A stretch of 63,461 bases of DNA, the filler included, from Caldilineae bacterium (GTDB lineage Bacteria > Chloroflexota > Anaerolineae > DTLA01): the NCBI GenBank assembly GCA_037446815.1. It is 5 parts of 5 records of this genome, joined end to end, with 100 filler letters (N's around TTAATTAATTAA, not from the genome) between each part and the next. Parts side by side here need not be neighbours in the genome. Positions count along the whole stretch, not along the records: positions 12,980 to 25,768 come from JBBIHX010000075.1; 4 more parts are not named here. One strand, written 5' to 3'. Under the pieces are notes generated by a model. The model was given only the letters and a program-made list of their open reading frames with translations, did no database searches and was not told the origin of the DNA. The translations under genes and the position numbers were made by a program. This document shows positions 1 through 20,904 of the stretch, in pieces (the stretch's first letter is position 1; each line of letters opens with the position of its first letter).

Positions 1-3000
1 ACGCCGCTGCCGGGCAGGCCCACGCCCGCGCCCGTGGAGCCCCCCGCAGTCCAGCCTGTGGCGCGCGAACCCGGGCCGGCCGTCGCTTCGGGCGATCTCC
101 TGGCCGTGGCGCAGGCCTTTGACCCCGAAGAGGCCATGGAGTTCGTCAACGCCCTGACCGCGCCGGAGATGGGTGGCAGGCAACCCGCAACCGAAGGCGG
201 ATACGCCGCGGGCGACTATATCGCGGAGAAGTTCCAGGAGTTCGGGCTCCAGCCCGCCGGAACCGACGGCTACTTCCAGCCCTTCACGGCCCCCTTCGCC
301 GAGATCACGGGCGTTCCCACCTTCGTAATCACCACCACGGCGGGCACGGTGTACGACGACTTCGTGTACCGCAAAGACTTCGCCTTTGCCTGGGGCGGGT
401 ATGCCGGGGGCGGCACGGCCAGCGGGCGCGTCGTCTGGGCCAACGACTGCCGCGCCGAGGACTTCCGCGGCGTGGATGTGGCCGGGCAGATCGCCTTCTG
501 CCGCTTCTCCGCCGACGATGAGATTTACCGTCAGGCGCTGGAGCACGGAGCGAGCGGCCTGATTCTGCTGACCGACGACGAGGGTCGCGTGAGCCATCTG
601 CGCACCTATCGTCAGCCGAACTACCTGCCCGACAGTTTGCCCACGCTCCTGGTGCTGCCGCAAGTCGCCGACGCGCTGCTGAGCGGGAGCGGCTACACGC
701 TGGACGACCTGTCGCTCCTGTACCGCCCCGTGCCCTTGAGCGTATCGGCGCAGTTTGAGGTGTTCCTGAACGAGCCGGGCGAGGCCCAGGCGCGCAACGT
801 ACTGGGCGTGCTGCCGGGCCGCGACCCCGCCTTGCGCGACAAGGTGGTCATCATCGGCGCGCACTACGACCATCTGGGCGCCGACGCCAACGGCGACATC
901 TACCGCGGCGCCAACGATAACGCCTCGGGCACGGCGGCCCTGTTGGAAATCGCCCGCTCGTGGCAGGCCGCCGGATTCGTCCCCGACATGACGGTGCTCT
1001 TCGCCGCATGGGACGCCGAGGAGCAGGGCCTGCTGGGCGCCGAGCACTACGTGCGGAACCCACGCTATCCCCTCACGGCCACCGTCGGCATGATTCAGAT
1101 GGACATGGTCGGCCTGGCGTCCGATGGCGTGCTGACGCTGGACGGCATCAACAACGCCATCGGGCAGCAGGTGCAGGCCAGCGCCGCCATCTTCGGCGTG
1201 CAGACGGGCGAGGTGTCGTTCCAGGGCGGCAGCGACCACGCGGCGTTTCTGCGCGCCAACGTCCCCGCCACGCTCCTCATCTGGGACAACGCCGATGTGC
1301 CCTACTACCACACCCCGCAGGACACGCCCGACACCCTCCAGCCCGAGCGCCTGCGGCAGGCGGGAGCCATCGCGTCCCACGCGGCCATTGCCCTGTCCAC
1401 GATCCAGCCGCGGCTGCGCGCCCTGCTGGACGCCCAGGCGCGGGCCATCGCCGCGGGCGACCTCAACGCCTACGCCGCCACGCTGGACCCCGCCGACGCC
1501 GAATTGCAGCGCGCAGGTATGGACTGGCTCGCCACGCGCCCCGCGGACGCCCGCCAGGGCTACACGCTCACCATCGGCAGCCTGCTCGTGTCGGGCGACA
1601 CGGCCCAGGCCGACGTAACCGCGGCCTCGGTGGGCGCAGATGGCCGACGGTCCGTGCTGGCATCGTACCCGGCCCGGATGGTGCGCCGCGGTGCGGACTG
1701 GTATGCCACCTGGCCCGTCGCCCGCACCGTGAGCGCCCCCGCCCTGTCCGTGCAGATGGTGCGGCAAAGCGACGCGGATGAGGAGTGGGCCGAGACGCTG
1801 GCCCAAGCGCGCCTTCGGGCGGCCTTGGCCCTGGGCCTGCGCAACCCGCAGCCGATGACCCTCACCGTGTACCCCGACATGAACACCTTCGCGTGGCTGG
1901 CCGGCGCTGGCACGGGCGCGTATTCGCCCCTGCCCGGCTACCACATCGCCCGCACCGACACCATCACGCCCACTGCCGTCAACCTGGTGCGCAGTGAGAT
2001 GGGCATGCCCCTGCACGAAGGCGCGTGGCTGGGCCTGGGGCTGACATACTGGGTGCAGACCGCCGGCGACGCCGAGGCACAGCGCGCCCTGTCCCACCAG
2101 ATGACCCCCCTGCTGGACGGCACCGTCTCGGCGCGGCAGGTGCTCACCCAGACCGCCGATGCCCTGGATGACCGTAGTGCTGCGCTGGCCTGGAGCCTGA
2201 CGGACTACTTCATGCGCACCTACGGCACGGACGGCTTGCGCCGATTCTGCGCGGGCTGGGCCAGGGCGGGAACGCAAGCGGGCGCCTTCGCCGCCATCGG
2301 CACAACCCCCGACGCCTTTGTCCAGGCGTGGGAGGCGGCGGTGCTGAATCCCATTGCCGAAGCGCGCGCGGGCATAGAGCAGACGCTGCGCGAACGCGAG
2401 CAGGCCGTCCTCGCGGGCGACAAGGCCGCATTCCTCGCCACCGTGAACCCGGCCGACCCGGTGTTCCAGACCGAAGAGGGGCACTGGTTTGACGATTTGG
2501 CAGAGCACCCGGCGGAGTCCTACGCGCTCAAGGCGCAATTGCTGGCCGCGGACGAAGCCGGAGCACTGGCCCGCCTGCAGATGACCGCGAAGATGAAGGA
2601 AGGCGGCAACACCGTGCAGGCGTCCTACACGGCGCGATTTGTCAGGGCCGCGGAGCGTTGGCTGCTGGCCGGGCCCGACTGGACGGTGGAACAGGGCGAC
2701 CACTTCCTCGTCAAGTACGCGCCCCCCACGACGCGGGAGACGGCCCGCGCCGTGCTGGACGCCGCCGAACGCGCCTATGCCCAGGTAACCACCGACCTGG
2801 ACTACGCGCCCGCGTCCGTTACCGAAATCAAGTTGTACGACGACCAGCCCGCCATGCTGGCGTCCATCCTGCTCTCGGTGCCTTCGTGGGCCAAGGGCTG
2901 GTACGAACCCGGCGAGGCCATCAAGGTGTGGACGGGGGCGAAGGGCGTGGATTTCGTGAGCCTCATCGCCCACGAATTCACGCACCGCGTGCTGTTTGAC

Positions 3001-4692
3001 CTCGGCGTGGACCTGGGCTGGCTGCACGAGGGCGTGGCCGTGTTTGAGAGCATGCGGGCCGCGCCCGAGACGGCGGCTCCCGCGCAGGCGCGCTACGTGC
3101 CCGCCGTCCGCGAAGCCCAGCGCACGCAGAAACTGCTGGACTGGGCCAACATGCCCACGTATGACGAAGTGGCCGATCAGGACACGACCCTGTACTACGG
3201 CCAGGCGTGGATGTTCGTGGACGAATTCGTGCGCCAGTTTGGGCTGGATAGTCTCAACCGCCTTCTGCGCGCCCTGGGCGAGGGCCGTGGATTCGCGCAG
3301 GCGTTCTCGGTGGCGGCGCGCATGCCCTTCTCCGAGTGGGAACCCCAGTGGCAACAGGCGGTGCGGCTGGGCGGCGTGCCCGCGGAGCTCATCCGCGCCG
3401 CCCAGGGATTCAGCGCGGACCGGGCGCTGGCCACAGTGCAGACGCTGGCGTCCCCGGACTTCGCCGGGCGCAGAGCCGGCAGCCCAGGCGCCGACGCCGC
3501 GGCCCGCTGGATCGCCCAGCAGATGCAGGCGCTCGGCCTCCAGCCCGGCGCGCCCGACGGCTCCTACTTCCAGGCCGTCCCCATCCCCTACGCCGAACTC
3601 GCCGCCATGCCCGTCGTCCGCTTCACCGATACGGTAACGGGCGGCCAAGTGGCGCTGGCCTATGGACAGGACTTCCGCGAGGTGGTGGGCGGATTCGCGG
3701 GGGGCGGCGACCGAACCGCCGAACTCGTCTGGCTGCCCAAAGAGTTCCCCGAGGACGTTCGCCTGGGCGGGCGCATCGCCCTCAAGTACCAGTCCGCGGA
3801 CCCGACCGCCGAGGCCGAGGCCGCATGGGCCCATGGCGCGGGCGGCCTCATCCTCGTGGTCAAGGACACGTCCCTGGACATGCGCGAGCGAACCGTGCCC
3901 TCGCGGGCGATGGAGTCAGACGCCATCCCCGTGGTGCAGATTCGGGAGGAAACCTGGCGCGAGATTATCAAGATGGCGGGGCTGACCCCCTACGAGGCAA
4001 ACAACGCTCCCCGCGCGTTGCTGCTCTCGCTGAAGGCCCACCTCGCCGTGCCGTACAGCACGCCGCAGACGGCGCAAGCGTTGACCGTCGTCGGCGTTCT
4101 GCCGGGCGAACGGGCCGACGCGCGCCCGCTGGTCATCGGCGCGCACTACGATGGCGTGGGGGCGCTCCCCGACGGCACGCTGTACGCCGGCGCGAACAAG
4201 AACGCCTCGGGCGTGGCCGTGATGCTGGAAGTGGCGCGGGTGCTGGCCGAAAGCGGATTCCGCCCGTCGCGACCCATCTACTTCATCGCCTGGGGCGCAG
4301 AGGAAGCGGGCCTCGCCAGTTCCCGCTCCTACGCCGAGCAAGCGATTGTGCCGCTGAGCCGGATGCTGGGGCTGCTGGAGTTGGACACGGTCGGCGCGGC
4401 GCGCAGTTATTACCTGAACTTGGAAGGCGACAAGGACGGCCTGGAGGCGACGCTCCTCTTCAACCTGCGCCTGGCCGCAGACCTGCTGGATCGGCGCGTC
4501 TCGCCCGAGGCATACAAGGGCAGCAACACCCACGCCATCTTCCGCGAGCGCGGCGTGCCGTCGGTGCTCCTGTTCTGGCCCAACGCGGAGCACATCCACA
4601 CGCCGCTGGACACGCCCGACACGCTGGACCCGTACAAGTTGGCCACGACGGGCGAGGTTACGACCCTGGCGGCCATGATGATGGCCAGGTAG
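1..4692 (+). CDS. Large multidomain metallopeptidase: M28+PA, two MA/gluzincin-like segments, second M28+PA; 5' end truncated by the window
   Basis: M28 motifs GAHYDHLG, GANDNASG, DAEEQG, QMDMVG, YYHT; central AHEFTH...WLHEG; second GAHYDG...AEEAG...HIHT. Frame is open from base 1. Confidence 0.85.
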   Translation, partial: TPLPGRPTPAPVEPPAVQPVAREPGPAVASGDLLAVAQAFDPEEAMEFVNALTAPEMGGRQPATEGGYAAGDYIAEKFQEFGLQPAGTDGYFQPFTAPFAEITGVPTFVITTTAGTVYDDFVYRKDFAFAWGGYAGGGTASGRVVWANDCRAEDFRGVDVAGQIAFCRFSADDEIYRQALEHGASGLILLTDDEGRVSHLRTYRQPNYLPDSLPTLLVLPQVADALLSGSGYTLDDLSLLYRPVPLSVSAQFEVFLNEPGEAQARNVLGVLPGRDPALRDKVVIIGAHYDHLGADANGDIYRGANDNASGTAALLEIARSWQAAGFVPDMTVLFAAWDAEEQGLLGAEHYVRNPRYPLTATVGMIQMDMVGLASDGVLTLDGINNAIGQQVQASAAIFGVQTGEVSFQGGSDHAAFLRANVPATLLIWDNADVPYYHTPQDTPDTLQPERLRQAGAIASHAAIALSTIQPRLRALLDAQARAIAAGDLNAYAATLDPADAELQRAGMDWLATRPADARQGYTLTIGSLLVSGDTAQADVTAASVGADGRRSVLASYPARMVRRGADWYATWPVARTVSAPALSVQMVRQSDADEEWAETLAQARLRAALALGLRNPQPMTLTVYPDMNTFAWLAGAGTGAYSPLPGYHIARTDTITPTAVNLVRSEMGMPLHEGAWLGLGLTYWVQTAGDAEAQRALSHQMTPLLDGTVSARQVLTQTADALDDRSAALAWSLTDYFMRTYGTDGLRRFCAGWARAGTQAGAFAAIGTTPDAFVQAWEAAVLNPIAEARAGIEQTLREREQAVLAGDKAAFLATVNPADPVFQTEEGHWFDDLAEHPAESYALKAQLLAADEAGALARLQMTAKMKEGGNTVQASYTARFVRAAERWLLAGPDWTVEQGDHFLVKYAPPTTRETARAVLDAAERAYAQVTTDLDYAPASVTEIKLYDDQPAMLASILLSVPSWAKGWYEPGEAIKVWTGAKGVDFVSLIAHEFTHRVLFDLGVDLGWLHEGVAVFESMRAAPETAAPAQARYVPAVREAQRTQKLLDWANMPTYDEVADQDTTLYYGQAWMFVDEFVRQFGLDSLNRLLRALGEGRGFAQAFSVAARMPFSEWEPQWQQAVRLGGVPAELIRAAQGFSADRALATVQTLASPDFAGRRAGSPGADAAARWIAQQMQALGLQPGAPDGSYFQAVPIPYAELAAMPVVRFTDTVTGGQVALAYGQDFREVVGGFAGGGDRTAELVWLPKEFPEDVRLGGRIALKYQSADPTAEAEAAWAHGAGGLILVVKDTSLDMRERTVPSRAMESDAIPVVQIREETWREIIKMAGLTPYEANNAPRALLLSLKAHLAVPYSTPQTAQALTVVGVLPGERADARPLVIGAHYDGVGALPDGTLYAGANKNASGVAVMLEVARVLAESGFRPSRPIYFIAWGAEEAGLASSRSYAEQAIVPLSRMLGLLELDTVGAARSYYLNLEGDKDGLEATLLFNLRLAADLLDRRVSPEAYKGSNTHAIFRERGVPSVLLFWPNAEHIHTPLDTPDTLDPYKLATTGEVTTLAAMMMAR

Positions 4693-12838: not shown

Positions 12839-12879
12839 CGCGTGCCGGGATGCCCCCGCGCGCGTGTGGATATGCGCGT

Positions 12880-12979
12880 NNNNNNNNNNNNNNNNNNNNN
12901 NNNNNNNNNNNNNNNNNNNNNNNTTAATTAATTAANNNNNNNNNNNNNNNNNNNNNNNNNNNNNNNNNNNNNNNNNNNN
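12880..12979. other. Artificial contig linker
   Basis: 100 nt: N-run, TTAATTAATTAA, N-run. Confidence 0.99.
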
Positions 12980-13092
12980 ACGCGCGACCTGTACGCTCGG
13001 CTGACCGCCCAGGGCGAGTGATTTCACCCGCTCGTAACACTCTGCGCAGGCGCGTGCCCCCGCGCAGATGCCTACACCGAGTTACCTCATAG

Positions 13093-13198
13093 GAAACCTT
13101 GACGTATCTCCCCTCCGTGTGAGCCTCATGTGAGTGCCATGTGAGTACCCCTGTGCTATAGTGGAGCCAGAAACACGACAGCACAGGAGGAAGTAGCC
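13093..13198 (+). promoter_or_regulatory. Promoter/leader copy 1 with three 11-bp-phased TGTGAG repeats, extended -10 and SD
   Basis: TGTGAG at 13118, 13129, 13140; TGcTATAGT with hexamer 13157-13162; AGGAGG; near-identical to 14868-14972. Confidence 0.7.
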
Positions 13199-14026
13199 AT
13201 AAAGACCCTGTTCGCCAAACTCGCCGATCCCCGCTGCATTCAGGTGGCGCGGCTGACCGCAACAGTGATACTGATACTGGCATTCACAACGCAGAGTGCG
13301 GCCAATGGAAGGGAACCGCAGTTCATCAATGGCGTCCTATCACCCATTTGCTTCCCCGTAGGGCCAGATGCACTAGACCTGGGAGTGACAGGCTATGATT
13401 GCGGGCGAGAGCCAGACGGAAGTGTGGTCGTTCTCTTTGCGCATCGGGATACGCATCGGAGCGGGAAGATTCGAATCCGCAGGTCCACTGACAGAAAGGA
13501 AGTCCTCCTGGAACTCGTGCGAGAAGGGAAATCTGCGCTTCTGATACACTGGAATCCGGCCGGCATCGACGTTTGGCTGCAAGACGCCAACGGCCGAGGG
13601 GGGCAGTTTGTGTACGATGAGCGAGCCCGTGGATGGAAACCTGTTACCGAGGGCGCGCAATCGGTCCTGTGCGCGAACCAGGAAGATGCCAAGATAGTGG
13701 CGGCCGTGTATGGCGACCTCCAGGCGCGTTCCGTTGGTCAAATTATCCAAGGATTGGTATTATGGAAGCCCCTTGCCTTGGTCGGAGACCGCGCTGGTAA
13801 CGAGGTCTACTGTCCGTGCACAGGGCCTTGGTCTCGCGGTGATGCGGTACATACCACTAGGTCAGGCTGTTGCTACGATGCAACCAATGATGTGAATGTA
13901 AGATGTTGGAATCAGTGGTGCATTGGGTGCTGCCAGCTCGGAGACTGTGATGCTGCATGTCTGGTTGATGACTACTTTTGCGTGTGCGGGCGCTCTGGCA
14001 GAGAGTGCGGCGGGGCTTGCCATTGA
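13199..14026 (+). CDS. Secreted protein with Cys-rich C-terminus; start is a mutated ATA at 13199 or GTG at 13244
   Basis: In-frame (I)KTLFAKLADPR leader shared with the peptides at 14973 and 15135; hydrophobic signal ending QSAA; 14 Cys in the last ~73 aa. Confidence 0.65.
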   Translation: MKTLFAKLADPRCIQVARLTATVILILAFTTQSAANGREPQFINGVLSPICFPVGPDALDLGVTGYDCGREPDGSVVVLFAHRDTHRSGKIRIRRSTDRKEVLLELVREGKSALLIHWNPAGIDVWLQDANGRGGQFVYDERARGWKPVTEGAQSVLCANQEDAKIVAAVYGDLQARSVGQIIQGLVLWKPLALVGDRAGNEVYCPCTGPWSRGDAVHTTRSGCCYDATNDVNVRCWNQWCIGCCQLGDCDAACLVDDYFCVCGRSGRECGGACH

Positions 14027-14867: not shown

Positions 14868-14972
14868 GAAACCTTAACGTATCCCCTCTCTGTGTGAGCC
14901 TCATGTGAGTGCCATGTGAGTACCCCTGTGCTACAGTGAAGCCAGAAACACGACAGCACAGGAGGAAGTGCC
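14868..14972 (+). promoter_or_regulatory. Promoter/leader copy 2 with three 11-bp-phased TGTGAG repeats
   Basis: TGTGAG at 14893, 14904, 14915; TGcTACAGT with hexamer 14932-14937; SD AGGAGG. Confidence 0.7.
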
Positions 14973-15098
14973 ATGAAGACCCTGTTCGCCAAACTCGCCG
15001 ATCCCCGCTACGCCAAGGTTGCGTGGGTTGTGCTTGGACTCATCGGGCTCATCATCGCGGGCGGCGCGCCCACCGGCCCCAGCGGCCCCGGCGCCTAG
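14973..15098 (+). CDS. 41-aa peptide, copy 1: MKTLFAKLADPRYAKVAWVVLGLIGLIIAGGAPTGPSGPGA
   Basis: AGGAGG SD 7 nt before ATG, GC3-rich codons, TAG stop; below the ORF-track length cutoff. Confidence 0.85.
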   Translation: MKTLFAKLADPRYAKVAWVVLGLIGLIIAGGAPTGPSGPGA

Positions 15099-15134
15099 TC
15101 CCACCGACACAGAACGCTCACAGGAGGAAGTGCC

Positions 15135-15260
15135 ATGAAGACCCTGTTCGCCAAACTCGCCGATCCCCGCTACGCCAAGGTTGCGTGGGTTGTGCTTGGA
15201 CTCATCGGGCTCATCATCGCGGGCGGCGCGCCCACCGGCCCCAGCGGCCCCGGCGCCTAG
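15135..15260 (+). CDS. 41-aa peptide, identical copy 2
   Basis: 14957-15103 matches 15119-15265 (period 162), including the SD. Confidence 0.85.
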   Translation: MKTLFAKLADPRYAKVAWVVLGLIGLIIAGGAPTGPSGPGA

Positions 15261-15555
15261 TCCCAGAACCCATACCGATTCCCAGCCGCCGCAGCATCTT
15301 GTGCGGCGATCCTCCCGATAGGGGGCAACGGAATCTGCTTGAGGTGGCCTTTCGGAAGGTGCCAGGGAACGCCGTCCGGGCCGCCGAGTTGGACGCGGTT
15401 GGTCGGCCAGATTTCATCTCAAAGCAGCGATCATTGCAGGCCTCGCGGGTTCGCACGATTCTGAGGCTTCCAATACGACACAGCGTCGCAAGCGGTTTGC
15501 CTGCGCCCCCTATCGTTTTGCATACGCGGATGGTACCAAGACGAAGGAGAACGAA

Positions 15556-15786
15556 ATGACTGCGGAACTCTTGAACGTGCTCGTGGGCGCGGCGGTAACG
15601 GATGGCGAATTCTGCCAGACCCTGCTGAGCAACCCGGGTCGGGCCGCGCGGCAGTTCGGCCTTGCGCCCGAGGACGTGGAAGTGGTGTCCAAGATTCGCG
15701 CGCGCTCGCTGGCCGAGTTTGCGGGGCAGTTGCTCCTCTGGATGCCGACCGAGCCCAGGGAATCCCGATACGCCCGAATGCAATAG
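15556..15786 (+). CDS. Small NHLP-clan (Os1348/Franean1_4349-like) protein
   Basis: LNVLVGAAVTDGEFCQTLLSNPGRAARQFGL resembles the A..D..FR..LL.DP nitrile-hydratase-leader pattern; SD AAGGAG. Confidence 0.65.
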   Translation: MTAELLNVLVGAAVTDGEFCQTLLSNPGRAARQFGLAPEDVEVVSKIRARSLAEFAGQLLLWMPTEPRESRYARMQ

Positions 15787-15873
15787 CGCGCCTGCCGGTA
15801 CAAGTCGGCCAGGCACACCGTTCTGTACGTACGCAGCCTGCTGCGGCATGTCCGTGGCAGGCTGTTGTTGTTG

Positions 15874-15942
15874 CACCGCAGAGACAGAGAGCACGCAGAG
15901 AAAAAATCAGAATTCCTCCGCGCCCTCTCCGTCTCTGCGGTG
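15874..15942. repeat. Inverted repeat of CACCGCAGAG type between convergent genes
   Basis: CACCGCAGAGAC...GTCTCTGCGGTG. Confidence 0.7.
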
Positions 15943-15976
15943 CAATGAGCGTTCTCCGCGGTGAACGTGAGCGCGG

Positions 15977-17884
15977 CTAATCCCCGCCGGGCCGAGCCAG
16001 TTCGTACACGTGCACCCTGTCTTGCAGGATAGGATTCACGGCCAGATTGCCGCGGATGATCCCGCTCACCGTTTCGCCCAGCCACTTGGGGGACTCCTCA
16101 ACCACCGCGATTTCGCGCAAGCGGCCGTCGCGCAGGATGCCGGCCTGCACCGTGGCCCAGGTCTGGCCGCGCGCGTCGCCCCAGCCCGCGTCGTAACTGC
16201 GCTCGCCCACGAGAACGTGCGTGACGCCCCACGACTGGAGCAGCGAAATGCACTCCGGCTCGGGGAAGCGCGCCAGCACGTCGCCATAGGCCATGTACGC
16301 GGTTGTGTAGAACGTGCCGTGGCCGTAGGCGATTCGCCGGCCGTGGAGCGCGGAGCGGTACAGCGCATCGCCGTTCCAGGCGGCCACCAGCGGAAACCGC
16401 ATGAGCACCGCATCCTCGGGCAGCGCGGACAGATACTGCTCCAGCGGGCCGGGCGTTGTGGCGGAAAAGCCGAAGGGCATGGGTACCACCGCAAACTCCA
16501 CGAGCACCAGCGCGATGAGCGCGCCTGCCAAGACCCTGCGCGCCGCGCGCCCCCCTCTCAGCGCGGACGCCAACCCCATCCCGCCCAGCACGGCCACGCC
16601 GAACGTGGTGATAAGGCCGAAGCGGTACAGCGTGCGCAACGCGCTGCCGAAGGGCACGAACAGATAGACCAGCAGCGCGGGCAGGGGAATAGGGATCGCG
16701 CCCGGACGGTGGAGCGAGTAGTACGACACGGGATTGATGGCCAGGCGCTCGGTGAGGAAATGCATGGCGCGGGCGAACAGGCGGTCCACGCCGTCAGGCA
16801 CGGGTACGTAGAGGCGTGTCCCGCCCACGTGGAGGGTCGTGCCCAGGGCCATGACGAAGGCGACGAGCGTGATGAGCGCCAGGCCCGACACGACCCGCCC
16901 CGCGCGCCGCCGCCACGCGATCCACGCCAGGGCGAGCGGCACGAACCCCACGAACACGAATCCAGGCGCATACCACGGGTACGCGGGGACATCCGCGCGA
17001 TGCTCCAGGAACCGGCGCCCCCACAGCGGATGGTAGACGTTGGGGTAGACGAAATCCTCCAGGCTGGCGGACCACTTCTCCGTCTCTGCAAGCGACCAGG
17101 TCATGCCGTTCTGGGCGTGTTGCAGCGCGGGGATCGCTGCTGGCAATACCAGGACAACCGTAACCGCCGCCATCAGCGCCAGGTGGCCCCACACCCGGCG
17201 GCCGGCCAGGTTCGCCTTCCACGGCCATAGTCGCCACAGCAGGTAGATGGCCAATGACAGGCCGACGATGTAGGCGTAGTACCACGAGGACAGCGCGTTG
17301 AGGGCCAGGAAGCACCCCGCGAGGGCGGCGTCCCGCGCACGTCGCCCCCGAAGCCACCGTTCCATGAACAGAAACAGGAGCGGCAGCCACTGCGTGGCGA
17401 TGAGTGGGAGCCAGCCCGCGGCCATGGCGCCGATGCGGTACGGCGCATAGGTGAAGGCCACGGCGGCGAAGACGCCAGCGGCGCGGCTCCGCGTCAGGTA
17501 CAGGACGAACGCATAGGTCGCCAGGCTCGTCAGGAAGAACGTGAGCAAGACGAACACGTTGTAGGCCACCGTGGGGCTGAAAACCAGCAGGAGCGGCGCC
17601 AGCAGAGCCTTGTTGGCAATCATGGTCTCGGAAAGCGCCAGATTGTAGCCGAACGGGTAGAACATGTTGGGATTGAACAGGAGCGCCGTCTCGCCGGCCA
17701 TCGCGCGCCCCAGATACCACACGTCGTAGAGCCATCCGAGGTTGTCCCACGGCGGGCCGGGCACCGCGCGGTCTATCACCGCAACGAGGGGATAGGTCAT
17801 CGCCACCGGCAGGGCAGCGAAGAGGGCAATCGGGAGTCCGTGCCGACGAACTGACGCCAGGACGCGATTCAGCCCGCGGCCCAT
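15977..17884 (-). CDS. Polytopic membrane protein, probable GT-C-fold (YfhO-like) glycosyltransferase
   Basis: ~12 TMs; MTYPL, NMFYPFGYNLA, AYN, FTYAPYR, SWYY motifs; follows a DPM1-like GT2. Confidence 0.65.
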   Translation of the reverse strand: MGRGLNRVLASVRRHGLPIALFAALPVAMTYPLVAVIDRAVPGPPWDNLGWLYDVWYLGRAMAGETALLFNPNMFYPFGYNLALSETMIANKALLAPLLLVFSPTVAYNVFVLLTFFLTSLATYAFVLYLTRSRAAGVFAAVAFTYAPYRIGAMAAGWLPLIATQWLPLLFLFMERWLRGRRARDAALAGCFLALNALSSWYYAYIVGLSLAIYLLWRLWPWKANLAGRRVWGHLALMAAVTVVLVLPAAIPALQHAQNGMTWSLAETEKWSASLEDFVYPNVYHPLWGRRFLEHRADVPAYPWYAPGFVFVGFVPLALAWIAWRRRAGRVVSGLALITLVAFVMALGTTLHVGGTRLYVPVPDGVDRLFARAMHFLTERLAINPVSYYSLHRPGAIPIPLPALLVYLFVPFGSALRTLYRFGLITTFGVAVLGGMGLASALRGGRAARRVLAGALIALVLVEFAVVPMPFGFSATTPGPLEQYLSALPEDAVLMRFPLVAAWNGDALYRSALHGRRIAYGHGTFYTTAYMAYGDVLARFPEPECISLLQSWGVTHVLVGERSYDAGWGDARGQTWATVQAGILRDGRLREIAVVEESPKWLGETVSGIIRGNLAVNPILQDRVHVYELARPGGD

Positions 17885-17889
17885 CGGCG

Positions 17890-18636
17890 CTACTCCGTAG
17901 CGGAGTTGGCAGGCAACGGCGCGGCTCGCCATCCCGCGGGCACCGGCCTACGTCCTCGCCGCAGGTGGGCAGCCTTCTTACGGAACAGGAACAGCAGGTT
18001 CCGGAACCCATCGCGCCAGAGGTTCAGTTTGCTCTCGCCCACGCGCGGCCGGTAGTAGATGGGGACCTCGGCGCACCGCAGTTCCCTGCGGGTGAATGCC
18101 TCTATCTTGAGTTCCTCGGACAGGGACATGCCGTCGCTGGCGAGGTCTAGAAGCGGCAGGATGTCGCGGCGGAAGACCCACATGCCCGACTGGGAGTCCT
18201 TGATGTAGAACCAGAACAGCGCGGCCTGGACAACGCCGAGAACCCAGTTGCCGAAGACGCGGAGCGCCGTGCCTGACCCGCGCGTTTTGTAGCCCGTGCG
18301 GTCGCAGGTGATGAAGTCCAGGCCGTCTTCCACCAAGACGTCCACCAGCAGGGGGATGAACCCGCGGGGGTAGGTGCCGTCGCCGTCCATGGTAACGATG
18401 ATGTCGCCGGTGGCGCTGCGGAAGCCCGTCTTGTAGGCCGCGCCGTAGCCCTGCTTGGTCTCCACAACCACCCGCGCGCCCAGGCTCCGCGCCACGTCCG
18501 CCGTGCAATCGGTGGAGTTGTTGTCCACGACGATGACCTCGTCCACGCAGGAGGGCATATCGCTGAGCGTGATGGCGACGCCCTCCTCCTCGTTGTAGCA
18601 TGGCATCACGACCGAAATGCGGTGCCCTTTGTACAT
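17890..18636 (-). CDS. GT2 polyprenol-phosphate glycosyltransferase (DPM1-like)
   Basis: VVMPCYNEE, VVDNNSTD, GYGAAYKTG, MDGDGTY, DSQSG, RVGESKL. Confidence 0.9.
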   Translation of the reverse strand: MYKGHRISVVMPCYNEEEGVAITLSDMPSCVDEVIVVDNNSTDCTADVARSLGARVVVETKQGYGAAYKTGFRSATGDIIVTMDGDGTYPRGFIPLLVDVLVEDGLDFITCDRTGYKTRGSGTALRVFGNWVLGVVQAALFWFYIKDSQSGMWVFRRDILPLLDLASDGMSLSEELKIEAFTRRELRCAEVPIYYRPRVGESKLNLWRDGFRNLLFLFRKKAAHLRRGRRPVPAGWRAAPLPANSATE

Positions 18637-18645
18637 GCGCTGCTC

Positions 18646-19815
18646 CTATTTCTGTGGGCCGGACGCGTCGGCGGCATGGGGCTGGCCGGCTTCCAGCGGC
18701 GAAATCCGGTGGCGGACTTTGGCGGCCTTGAGGGCCAGGTATTCCTTGAACACCTGTGGCAATACCAGAGGGTTGAACAGGATGTTGACCGTCAGGAAGC
18801 ATTCGTAAGTGCAGAAGCACTTGGTGTCGCGAATATCGCGGCGCATCTCATCGGCCCGCTGGCTGAACCAGACCTTGCCGAAGTCGTAGTCGTAGTCGCG
18901 CACGTTGGCGATGACGCGGTCGGGCCGCACCTCGCAGGGGAGCACCTGCCCGCGGCTGAACATGGCCCCGCCCAGCGTGCCCGCGTAGCACGGAATCTGG
19001 TAACGGTTCTCGCGCACCGTCTTGGCGATGATGCGCGGGCGAACGATGCGCTTGGCGTTGAGCACGTCGGAGAACGGCATCTTGTAGTAGCCCGACAGGA
19101 TACGCGCCTTGTTGTCGCGCTCCAGGGCGCGGTGCAGTTCCTCGTAGCGCCTGATGTCAAAGTCCTTCGTCATGGGGTCGGCCGGCTCGCCCCGCGTCAG
19201 GAGCGTGAACACGGTGTTGACGCCCAGTTCCTTGCCCAGGTAGTCGTACAGGGGCAGCAGCCGATCCTGATTCAGCGCCGAGACCGTGATCTGCACGCAG
19301 ACGCTGAAGTTGGGATAGTGCTTCTCCAGCCGTCGCAGTTCCTTGTACGTGCGCACCGCCTTGTCAAACAGGCCAGGCGTGTTGCGGATGCGGTCGTGAT
19401 CCTCGCCGATGCCGTCTATGGACACGTCAATGTGCAGGTCAATGTTGGGGTTCTGCCGCAGCATGGTCTCGGTGGTCTCCACGATGCGGCCGGTTAGGCT
19501 GCCGTTGGTGGGGATGCCCACGTTGGCGGCATGGTTGTTGACCTTGAAGATGTGGACGATCTCGGCCAAATCCCTGCGGATGAACGGCTCGCCGCCCGTC
19601 GGCGTGAAGAACAGCATGTCGCCCATGGACGCCGATATCTTCTCAATCTCGTCTACAGTCAGTTCGTCCTTGACCCATTCCGTGCGCTGGCCGAGGAGAC
19701 AATGGCTGCAATGCGCGTTGCAATTCTCGGTAACGAAGAAGACGAAGTAGAGTGGCATGGCCCCGTGCTTGTAGAACATGCGAGGAGTGTACTTCAGATA
19801 GTTCCAGATGCTCAT
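18646..19815 (-). CDS. Radical SAM protein with SPASM/twitch domain
   Basis: CNAHCSHC, TGGEP, SIDG...HD; C-terminal CYAG...PCE...CFCTYEC. Confidence 0.92.
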   Translation of the reverse strand: MSIWNYLKYTPRMFYKHGAMPLYFVFFVTENCNAHCSHCLLGQRTEWVKDELTVDEIEKISASMGDMLFFTPTGGEPFIRRDLAEIVHIFKVNNHAANVGIPTNGSLTGRIVETTETMLRQNPNIDLHIDVSIDGIGEDHDRIRNTPGLFDKAVRTYKELRRLEKHYPNFSVCVQITVSALNQDRLLPLYDYLGKELGVNTVFTLLTRGEPADPMTKDFDIRRYEELHRALERDNKARILSGYYKMPFSDVLNAKRIVRPRIIAKTVRENRYQIPCYAGTLGGAMFSRGQVLPCEVRPDRVIANVRDYDYDFGKVWFSQRADEMRRDIRDTKCFCTYECFLTVNILFNPLVLPQVFKEYLALKAAKVRHRISPLEAGQPHAADASGPQK

Positions 19816-19878
19816 CGGCTCACCTTTCCCGGAGCGGCTGTCTGCCGCCGGTGTGGACTGTATCCCTTCGCGCGGCCG

Positions 19879-20865
19879 TCAGTAACGCCGCCCGCGGGCG
19901 AAATCTGCGATTCCCTTGAGCGTACCCACGCCCGACACCCAGAGGTTGATCGGCAGGAAGGCCGCGCTCTGTAAGAAGAACCGAACCCCGCGCGTCCGCC
20001 CCAGAAACGCCAGGAACGGCGCGTTCAGCACCCAGATGGCTGCCAGCGATCCCGCCGCCACCGCCCCCGCCGTCGGCCACACAGGGAGCAAGGCCAGCGC
20101 CAGCAACAGCAGGGCCGACACGGGCACGGATGCTTGAAAGAACCAGGGCACCGAGGCGTAGTATTTTCGCCCCGTGCGCTCCAGTTTATTGCGAATGAGC
20201 GTTTTGGTCAAACCCGCCGCGCGGGCGATATCGGTGAGGATGAGGCTGCGCAAGGTGTATCGCTTCAAGTGCACTACTTGCAGGCGCTTGTCCAGGCGCA
20301 CCCGATAACCCGCCGACAACAGGCGCATCCCGAGTTCAATGTCCTCGGTTACCGACGGGCCGGTGTAGTGGGGGTCAAACCCGCCCAGCGCCTGGAAGAC
20401 CGCCTTGCGGGCCGCCGCCGCGCTGGTGTAGAACACCCCCACGAACTCCGGCAGGCGCGCATAGGTGTAGTGCATCCACAGGTTTTTGAACTGCGATGCG
20501 AATTCCGGATAGGGCATGGCCTTGGCCAGCAGACCCACCACGGCGTGCACCGTCGGGTCTTGCAGGTTTTCGGCCACGAGCGCGAGCGTGTCGGGCCGAA
20601 TGATCACGTCGGAATCCATGAAGAAGACCACGTCGCCCGTGGCCGCCGCCGCGCCGGTGTTCTTGGCGACCGCCGCGCCCAGGTTGCGCTCGTGGCAGAT
20701 GACGCGGCACGGGAACTGCGCCAGAATCTGCGGCGTGGCGTCGGTGGAGCAGTCGTCCACAACGATGACCTCGTAGTCGGGGTACTCGGAGCGGAAGACG
20801 GCCTCCAGGCACTGCCTCAGCGTCGCGGCGCCGTTGTAGGTTGGGATGATGACGGATATCTTCAT
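19879..20865 (-). CDS. GT2 glycosyltransferase with C-terminal TMs
   Basis: ISVIIPTYN, VVDDCSTD, FMDSD, GGFD, TEDIEL. Confidence 0.9.
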   Translation of the reverse strand: MKISVIIPTYNGAATLRQCLEAVFRSEYPDYEVIVVDDCSTDATPQILAQFPCRVICHERNLGAAVAKNTGAAAATGDVVFFMDSDVIIRPDTLALVAENLQDPTVHAVVGLLAKAMPYPEFASQFKNLWMHYTYARLPEFVGVFYTSAAAARKAVFQALGGFDPHYTGPSVTEDIELGMRLLSAGYRVRLDKRLQVVHLKRYTLRSLILTDIARAAGLTKTLIRNKLERTGRKYYASVPWFFQASVPVSALLLLALALLPVWPTAGAVAAGSLAAIWVLNAPFLAFLGRTRGVRFFLQSAAFLPINLWVSGVGTLKGIADFARGRRY

Positions 20866-20904
20866 GCACACCCCCCACGGTAGAATGCGCTTACTACAGA
20901 AAAC

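Follow-up and report, generated by a model that had tools for sequence, protein, structure and literature searches.

The stretch of DNA analysed here, called the window in what follows, comprises 63,461 nucleotides, filler included, from the genome of a Caldilineae bacterium (GenBank assembly GCA_037446815.1), an organism of the class Anaerolineae in the phylum Chloroflexota. It contains two identical genes in tandem, each encoding a peptide of 41 residues. Both open reading frames (ORFs) are real genes, and sequence comparison places them in an undescribed family of tiny membrane peptides of the Chloroflexota. Relatives in distant genomes are in nearly all cases encoded between a large STAND-type regulator and a membrane protein of the family DUF5317. 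We tentatively consider the peptide as a resident single-pass membrane partner of DUF5317, or as its substrate, the two together forming the membrane part of a signalling cassette that would be driven by a STAND/SARP-like regulator.

Small membrane peptides are usually missed by annotation. The present ones represent an unnamed family that is tied to DUF5317, to a large STAND regulator and to an activator-type promoter, in a cassette that spans a whole phylum of filamentous, mostly uncultured bacteria. For DUF5317, the short peptide gene alongside, in two signalling contexts, is the first concrete functional lead, and the cassette provides a testable pair of regulator and promoter. New are the peptide family, its link to DUF5317 and the promoter; small peptides, in the membrane or exported, that have their own regulator are already known as a kind. 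A literature search yielded no paper on DUF5317, PF17248 or IPR035168, and none on a tandem small membrane protein of Anaerolineae. Judging by titles and the beginnings of abstracts, none of the papers listed on peptide-pheromone quorum sensing in Chloroflexi deals with this family.

The two peptide genes

The window is built from contigs joined end to end. Contig C74 ends at 12879, a spacer of N/TTAATTAATTAA fills 12880-12979, and contig C75 (JBBIHX010000075.1), which carries the peptide genes, starts at 12980; a C75 position is thus the window position minus 12979. Features on either side of this filler need not be neighbours in the genome.

A repeat search of the window yielded a 147-nt direct repeat (14957-15103 and 15119-15265) of 100% identity with a spacing of 162. 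Each copy starts 16 nt 5' of an ATG, has AGGAGG as its Shine-Dalgarno (SD) sequence 7 nt 5' of this ATG and contains the same 41-codon ORF. Repeat search and ORFs thereby confirm what the initial annotation had read from the sequence: an exact 147-bp repeat of period 162, each copy with its own AGGAGG and encoding the same peptide.

The tandem pair is present in four of the five genomes of the genus, i.e., in the present one (G000), in G001, in G003 and in G004; G002 (95% complete, 300 contigs) yielded no such pair. The peptides of G001, G003 and G004 are 90-98% identical to that of the window. Over the eight copies of the four genomes, the variable sites are distributed 4/1/11 over codon positions 1/2/3, which is the coding-type conservation that the initial annotation had proposed to look for. 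Between genomes, the non-synonymous differences (pN) amount to 0.011-0.045 and the synonymous ones (pS) to 0.12-0.24. Within a genome the copies are identical or nearly so, and each pair shares the synonymous changes of its own genome; the pair therefore evolves in concert. The gene would have been duplicated in this genus and its copies kept alike by gene conversion, presumably for dosage.

Could the pair still be due to chance ORFs, to faulty assembly or to decaying 5' remnants of a neighbouring gene for a Cys-rich protein? High-GC DNA is rich in long chance ORFs, and one of 216 residues (14909-15559) indeed overlaps both peptide genes in another frame; the Cys-rich gene, moreover, carries the same 5' module. 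The 216-residue frame, however, lacks coding support of the kind seen for the 41-residue frame, where substitutions are biased to third positions. The remnant idea is met by G003, which has the pair without the Cys-rich gene, and chance by the 216 clusters of the family, all of which keep to one motif and length (see below). As to the assembly, the unique spacer between the repeat copies (15104-15118), a junction that the initial annotation wanted checked, is bridged by a 75-nt contig from an independent metagenome run (X1, record 3, 15074-15147). Since tandem pairs occur in four of five genomes and this contig bridges the spacer, an assembly artefact is excluded for practical purposes. Taken together, these explanations are hardly credible. 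The two genes of the window (really three, if the copy described below is counted) and many elsewhere should be called in annotation.

In the same run, contigs of the repeat unit (14952-15171) have a word depth of 39-42 versus 7-12 in the flanks. This could reflect more than two copies or several strains in the sample, alternatives between which contig depth cannot decide.

A peptide family of the Chloroflexota

The first profile was built from the copies of the genus and four weak class-level matches. With it, small-ORF relatives were detected at E<=0.01 in 118 of 401 genomes of the class; the 401-genome counts, here and for DUF5317 and the co-occurrence below, take in one unpublished genome, G345. 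The same profile found 67 representatives at 50% identity in a library of 1.84 billion proteins, among them a Gly-rich protein of 2299 residues that is an evident false match. A broader profile yielded 216 clusters at 90% identity in a collection of 5.8 billion proteins. Every name given there is "hypothetical protein", none has a Pfam domain, and the two source names are Anaerolineae and Chloroflexi metagenome-assembled genomes (MAGs). In a phylum-wide sample of 301 genomes the broader profile scored in 17 at E<=1e-4, and 10 of these lie outside the class. The closest clusters in the ESM Atlas (score 0.91-0.92) are likewise unnamed hypothetical proteins. The peptide of the window matches nothing in Pfam, NCBIfam (scanned at E<=0.1 / 0.01) or PADLOC. 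Fused forms are practically missing: 8000 candidates contained one N-terminally extended ORF call of 102 residues, which is weak evidence that the family stands alone, without longer fused forms.

The layout of the family is simple: a basic N-end, a conserved hydrophobic helix of 16 residues, a lipobox-like [LVI][AG][GSA]-G-A-P and a short Gly-rich tail. For a finer view, 173 members were anchored on their A-P pair, which forces A and P, and positions were counted relative to the A. R or K is then found at -17 and Y or W at -14, followed by a hydrophobic run of 13 residues in which L and A abound; then come L, V or I at -4, A or G at -3, G, S or A at -2, G at -1 (172 of 173) and the A-P itself. 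A and P are also invariant in a separate family alignment of 49 rows. Past A-P, the tails comprise 8 residues in the median, consist of 41% Gly and follow a semi-conserved x-[AG]-[FYG]-G-G, with G at +6 in 142 of the 173 members; Cys occurs in the tails of just 15. In relatives that are 75-80% identical to the window peptide, changes are confined to residues 3-28, and the stretch AGGAPTGPSGPG is identical in all five sequences of 75-100% overall identity.

The profile searches thus bear out the expectation of Chloroflexota homologues with a helix and a G-A-P motif. The variable tail expected along with them is not seen: the tail is semi-conserved and, among close relatives, the least changed part. 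Tandem duplication, which the initial annotation had noted as common in RiPP loci, recurs for this family elsewhere, in at least 12 of the 118 genomes carrying the peptide. The largest array seen is in G117 (C2:1431939-1432718, locus L063), where five tandem peptide genes at a spacing of about 174 nt are followed by DUF5317.

The conserved cassette

Twenty distant loci were analysed by an all-against-all comparison of their ORFs and by family scans of representatives. The usual order is a STAND-TPR-BTAD regulator, one to five copies of the peptide gene, DUF5317, an Os1348/NHLP-like protein and a response regulator/kinase. A homologue of the regulator lies upstream of the peptide in all 20 loci (19 co-directional, one divergent). 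It is a protein of 1060-1150 residues in which a MalT-like STAND ATPase is combined with TPR repeats and, at the C-terminus, a BTAD domain; its N-terminal part scores 266-274 bits to PRK04841 (MalT-like ATPase). DUF5317, a membrane protein of about 190 residues, is encoded directly downstream of the peptide in 19 of the 20. A gene of the Os1348 family (NHLP clan), homologous to 15556-15786 of the window, is present in 18 and is followed by receiver and histidine-kinase genes. The Os1348-like identity was borne out by a family scan in both loci tested; cassette homologues score 52.8 and 53.2 bits with NF038399, and further tblastn matches to the Os1348-like protein were obtained in other loci. 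The same order is kept in loci from other classes of the phylum. Complete genomes with the cassette include G077, G117 and G357. A search with the 76-residue Os1348-like protein of the window itself led to two loci, one in an Anaerolineae MAG and, as a weak match, one in an Acidobacteriaceae MAG; in the latter (locus L075) the relative is 47% identical over 33 residues.

Peptide and DUF5317 go together also at the level of genomes. Among the 401 genomes, 95 have both, 23 the peptide alone, 32 DUF5317 alone and 251 neither, figures that overstate independence, as the counted genomes are related. The two genes are at most 2.5 kb apart in 80 of the 95 genomes with both. The 23 peptide-only cases are mostly weak matches in long ORFs. 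Twenty of the 32 DUF5317-only loci were inspected. Seven contain the regulator and a peptide missed by the first profile; ten encode, in this order, a K-W peptide of 29-33 residues, a membrane HD-GYP protein and DUF5317; one has the HD-GYP gene alone and two have neither. Nearly every DUF5317 gene is hence accompanied by one for a short hydrophobic peptide, and this in two distinct signalling contexts. The sister peptides of the second context (26-33 residues) start with M-K-W and end with K-W-H/N, 4-6 residues past the helix; from its sequence, this short family looks more like a plain membrane helix.

Of the neighbours foreseen by the initial annotation, a regulator is there, together with DUF5317 and two-component proteins; the neighbours common to the 20 distant loci include neither a CPBP protease nor an exosortase. 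The phased-repeat promoter and the NHLP-like gene, which it had assigned to one system with the peptides, are both conserved parts of the cassette. Its suggestion of a RiPP (ribosomally synthesised and post-translationally modified peptide) fared less well. In a classical form of such a pathway, the peptides would be precursors with a heavily modified Gly/Pro tail, and the NHLP-like gene and a nearby radical SAM gene of SPASM-like type would take part. Tandem identical precursor-like genes, the downstream gene of the Os1348/NHLP clan and the weak SPASM match of the radical SAM gene (18646-19815) would suit it. The peptide, however, gives no NHLP or Nif11 leader match (TIGR03793 or related models), and its tail rarely contains Cys. 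The radical SAM gene belongs to a convergent glycosyltransferase cluster, is linked to the peptides only within the genus and is not among the neighbours in the 20 distant loci. No RiPP maturase, cyclodehydratase, lanthionine synthetase or peptidase-containing ABC transporter is found among the neighbours common to these loci. Also, the GNAT, HEXXH and SagB-type proteins of the Os1348 cluster of Pseudomonas sp. Os17, as given in the part of PMC7726476 that was available, are absent here. We therefore rate a RiPP pathway as very improbable.

PADLOC matched the regulator with a generic TPR model only (36.5 bits) and had no match to the peptide, to DUF5317 or to the Os1348-like protein; by sequence, the cassette appears not to belong to the known STAND/Avs-like anti-phage defence systems.

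Promoter and regulator

The peptide genes are preceded by three GTGAG words with a period of 11 nt (promoter copy B in Table 1). A TACAGT follows 11 nt past these words, and the promoter scan found no good -35. In a pattern search, the three-word site occurs just twice in this genome, both times on C75, at promoter copies A and B. Comparable signals are present elsewhere: periodic 6-mers at 10-12 nt precede the peptide in 17 of 21 loci, whereas 200 shuffles gave 2.2 on average and never more than 8, and 14 of the 21 upstream regions have words of the GTGAG/GTAAG/GTGAC type, each with a -10-like hexamer about 10 nt further on. SARP-type activators bind heptamers that are repeated directly, two or three times, in units of 11 bp overlapping the -35 region (PMC10972967). 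The GTGAG words here fit this layout, for which a unit of 10-11 bp close to the -35 region is expected.

The likely activator would be the product of the gene directly upstream, a STAND ATPase-TPR-(weak wHTH)-BTAD protein. In the two regulators scanned, the BTAD domain is clear (82-105 bits). Just before it, in one of the two, Trans_reg_C is matched with 18.4 bits (E 0.0022, cut-off 26.2). We infer from this arrangement that the upstream STAND protein activates the promoter; the three GTGAG heptads, standing in place of a -35, would then make transcription activator-dependent. Because the promoter is found at copy 1 only, the two peptide genes are taken to be co-transcribed.

The two hairpins just past copy 2 have invariant stems and variable loops in the four genomes (z = -1.98; 11 pairs, no covariation available). 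One may conjecture that they stabilise the mRNA or attenuate transcription, or that they raise the peptide message over that of the downstream gene.

DUF5317 and the fate of the peptide

The predicted model of DUF5317, a confident one (pLDDT 84, pTM 0.78), has five membrane helices. Invariant are N100-G-G-x-M-P, D146 and S161-x-G-D164, and by the positive-inside rule the long conserved loop and the invariant residues are read as facing outside.

Prediction of a complex of DUF5317 with the peptide gave a score of 0.45 (runs 0.36, 0.49 and 0.45), compared with 0.00 for the best control; contact agreement among runs was at least 77% and the partner pLDDT at least 59. The pass mark is reached by 116 of 157 solved complexes and by 2 of 215 mismatched pairs; at scores of 0.60 or less it is reached by just 18 of the 157, and by both passing mismatches. 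The prediction thus lends weak support to a contact between DUF5317 and the peptide.

These data lead to the following picture. The two co-transcribed genes would give rise to a 41-residue single-pass peptide with its basic N-end in the cytoplasm and its Gly/Pro tail outside. It would act with DUF5317 as a small subunit or as the substrate, the invariant juxtamembrane G-A-P meeting the conserved extracytoplasmic loop of DUF5317. On the cytoplasmic side, the 41-residue type would make use of the STAND regulator, the Os1348-like protein and the response regulator/kinase, and the sister type with its 26-33-residue peptide of an HD-GYP phosphodiesterase of cyclic di-GMP (c-di-GMP). In the present genus, the HD-GYP operon, located elsewhere in the genome, is the one place where DUF5317 has been kept.

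The evidence is not all on one side. Apart from the relatedness of the counted genomes, several points weigh against the peptide being the partner or substrate of DUF5317. In this genus the 41-residue peptide genes have been kept although no DUF5317 gene stands next to them, so the two need not be neighbours and the peptide could have a different partner. Foldseek found nothing for DUF5317 in the PDB at E<=0.001 (best E 3.5), and a wide VIA search yielded generic helical matches only (best Z 6.3). The complex score is only a weak pass, and predictors easily pack two membrane helices together. Finally, on the side of the regulator, the OmpR-type winged helix-turn-helix (wHTH) is sub-threshold in one protein and was not seen in the second.

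Is the tail released? The residues at -3 and -1 are compatible with release of the 9-10-mer proposed by the initial annotation. If the cut were made after the invariant Gly, the residues (A/G at -3, G at -1, A at +1 and P at +2) would be compatible with a site of the Sec type, but the c-region would comprise just 3 residues. This leads to the idea of a pheromone-like precursor, close to the exported peptide of the initial annotation: inserted with its N-end inside, the peptide would be cleaved at the lipobox-like site, either past A-G-G by signal peptidase I or by DUF5317 as the peptidase, and the tail (G)APTGPSGPGA of 10-11 residues would be sensed via the TPR of the STAND regulator, with positive feedback on the peptide promoter. 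The basic n-region, an h-region of 13-16 residues, small residues at -3/-1 and an A-P past the site are what such a precursor would show. A regulator gene with TPR lies directly upstream, as in receptor-pheromone pairs; genes for precursors are typically multiplied, as here to 2-5 copies; close relatives differ least in the tail (AGGAPTGPSGPG in all five); and the n-region works on a secreted-type protein in G004. Weak hints of a likeness of DUF5317 to signal peptidase II, discussed below, fit as well. Yet the N-end and the helix are conserved far beyond ordinary signal peptides, and the sister peptides end in K-W-H/N, interfacial anchor residues that suit a resident membrane helix. Instead of a receptor of the RRNPP type, the regulator is a STAND ATPase whose end is SARP-like; the kinase of the L062 cassette, with just 266 residues, has no room for a membrane sensor, and the conserved neighbours in the 20 distant loci include neither an importer nor an exporter of oligopeptides. 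On balance, we regard a released pheromone as possible and rather unlikely. Should it be released, the tail would make the cassette a candidate first example of a dedicated peptide-signalling system in Anaerolineae.

The hints just mentioned stem from comparisons with LspA, the signal peptidase II. One of 17 members of DUF5317 matched PF01252 (Peptidase_A8) at E 1.2. Against 29 Anaerolineae LspA sequences, hhalign gave a probability of 10.7-13.8% (P 0.002-0.003) over 25-32 columns around one Asp; it pairs F-S-x-G-D of DUF5317 with F-N-x-A-D of LspA and leaves the first catalytic Asp of LspA unaligned. The score of 28.1 compares with at most 15.1 in 20 column-shuffled controls, which is a lenient control. 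In VIA, the lipoprotein signal peptidase 6ryp_A ranks 50 among generic matches (Z 4.9, root mean square deviation 6.4, 102 residues), and a profile search of PDB sequences gave nothing (best E 1.4). The likeness to LspA is below any significance threshold; taken with the lipobox-like residues before the invariant Gly, it is a lead, not a result. AgrB is absent from the families listed for the 17 members at E<=10, a difference that is unproven, as the HMMER filters drop most weak matches. A GxGD protease of the presenilin or prepilin-peptidase type was also considered for DUF5317 and was dropped, there being no match in Foldseek, VIA or the family scan.

If one follows the lead nevertheless, DUF5317 would be a very distant LspA-like intramembrane aspartyl peptidase dedicated to these peptides. 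It would cut a Cys-less pseudo-lipobox, [LVI]-[AG]-[GSA] / G-A-P, at the outer face of the membrane, and the released peptide would be a cell-cell or envelope signal throughout the Chloroflexota. We consider this quite improbable. The products would be a Gly/Pro-rich peptide of 11 residues here and an x-K-W-H/N peptide of 5-6 residues from the sister cassette, read out via the STAND-TPR-SARP activator or the c-di-GMP phosphodiesterase of the HD-GYP type, i.e., a new class of peptide-signal maturation.

Arrangement in the genus

Within the genus the order varies. G003 has regulator, peptide, peptide and the Os1348-like gene; in G004 and in the present genome, genes for a Cys-rich protein and for a PLDc_N protein are additionally inserted behind a duplicated promoter module. 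The features of the window are compiled in Table 1.

Table 1. Features of the peptide locus on contig C75, in window coordinates
Feature	Position	Strand	Remarks
End of regulator gene	12980..13021	+	Last 13 codons and stop; translation matches C-terminus of G004 orthologue
Promoter copy A	13119..13162	+	Three phased GTGAG words 13119-13145 (C75:140-166); TG-n-TATAGT -10 ending 13162
Gene for Cys-rich secreted-type protein	13199..14026	+	ATG changed to ATA; next in-frame start GTG 13244
Gene for PLDc_N small membrane protein, 72 residues	14317..14535	+	Pfam PF13396, 35.8 bits
Promoter copy B	14894..14937	+	Three GTGAG words, 11-nt period, 14894-14920 (C75:1915-1941); TG-n-TACAGT 14929-14937
Repeat copy 1	14957..15103	+	SD 14960-14965; 41-residue peptide gene 14973-15098
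Unique spacer between repeat copies	15104..15118	+	15 nt
Repeat copy 2	15119..15265	+	SD 15122-15127; 41-residue peptide gene 15135-15260
Two GC-rich hairpins	15287..15325	+	Just past copy 2; no T-run
Os1348-family (NHLP-clan) gene, 76 residues	15556..15786	+	NF038399, 44.4 bits, cut-off 40
Operon end	15833..15945	+	Terminator-like hairpin 15833-15865 with T-rich tail; inverted repeat 15871-15945

The regulator is cut off at the start of C75. Its N-terminal part of about 700 residues is found on another contig (G000:C253:402-2489), where it runs off the contig end and is 44% identical to residues 7-700 of the L062 regulator; the assembly splits the gene between C253 and C75.

The initial annotation overlooked a third copy of the 5' module of the peptide gene (promoter, SD and 13 initial codons) at about 13085-13236. 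This copy is 94% identical and fused in frame to an ORF of 260 residues for the Cys-rich protein. This protein (260-275 residues) has a signal-like N-end and a very Cys-rich C-terminal third, and no Pfam or NCBIfam family matches it. The G004 orthologue starts with ATG and shares its first 14 residues with the peptide, whose N-end doubles there as the n-region of a signal peptide, a hint at the topology of the peptide. By sequence, the Cys-rich gene appears to have captured promoter, SD and first 13 codons, which would have been copied onto it from the peptide gene. The peptide gene is the source of this module and not a remnant of it, because G003 has the pair without the Cys-rich gene. The PLDc_N gene accompanies the Cys-rich gene in G000 and G004 only.

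DUF5317 is single-copy in this genome and lies on C33 (locus L067, 1982-4491) behind the HD-GYP gene. The locus comprises a gene for a 26-residue M-K-W...K-W-H peptide, the membrane HD-GYP protein (2586-3920) and DUF5317 (3922-4491). The peptide gene is 526 nt upstream of the HD-GYP gene, with a stretch of 100 N between the two, and the peptide is identical in all five genomes of the genus. With two cassettes and a single DUF5317, the organism therefore has both peptide types and one DUF5317.

A second, divergent Peptidase_A8 paralogue (signal peptidase II; G000:C216:3288-3698, 41 bits) exists besides the ordinary one in all five genomes.

Downstream of the Os1348-like gene, the arms of the inverted repeat at 15871-15945 measure 33 nt and are 85% complementary. 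Rfam returned sub-threshold microRNA-like matches only for 15869-15949, which were taken as chance. Beyond it follows, on the minus strand, a convergent cluster of the glycosylation type (15977-20871) with a PTPS_related membrane protein of 651 residues, a GT2 glycosyltransferase, the radical SAM protein and another GT2; it adjoins the peptide operon also in G001 and G003.

Comparison with known systems

With SARP/AfsR-type systems the cassette has in common the direct heptad repeats in 11-nt units that replace the -35 and are followed by a -10, as far as the available part of PMC10972967 describes them. The regulators share a nucleotide-binding oligomerisation module, TPR and BTAD. In contrast to AfsR, the order is reversed in the cassette regulator, with ATPase and TPR first and the SARP-like part last; its wHTH is weakly detectable, and its binding to the repeats is presumed. 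The target, too, differs: it would be a small-peptide operon in Chloroflexota and not an antibiotic cluster.

The Os1348 protein of Pseudomonas sp. Os17 is a relative of the 76-residue gene product, which passes the cut-off of NF038399; the 41-residue peptide is unrelated to it. The genomic context is entirely different from that of Os17 as presented in the accessible part of PMC7726476, genes of the GNAT, HEXXH and SagB type having no counterpart here.

The lipobox-like motif recalls the signal peptides of prolipoproteins, with which the family shares the pattern [LVI][ASTG][GAS] before an invariant position. There, however, the peptides have Gly (172 of 173) instead of the obligatory Cys, and for this reason no lipid modification is possible. 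DUF5317, in turn, shares with LspA a local F-[NS]-x-[AG]-D motif, located where its last helix ends on the outer side.

Rap-Phr, NprR-NprX, PlcR-PapR and Rgg-SHP are pairs of receptor and pheromone genes in Gram-positive bacteria. As in these, an ORF of about 40 codons with a signal-like N-part and a short C-terminal tail is placed directly downstream of a gene for a TPR regulator, and autoregulation is plausible for the cassette. Unlike them, the cassette has a STAND ATPase with SARP-like output in place of the RRNPP fold, a peptide with strongly conserved helix and N-end, and DUF5317 as a conserved partner; no importer is linked.

MgrB, which acts with PhoQ, and KdpF are small regulatory membrane proteins of sensor or enzyme complexes. 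Like these, the present peptide has fewer than 50 residues and a single helix, and is encoded in the operon of the membrane protein with which it would act. There is no relation in sequence, and to the common scheme the new family adds a conserved G-A-P motif, a Gly-rich tail, frequent tandem multiplication and an activator-type promoter of its own.

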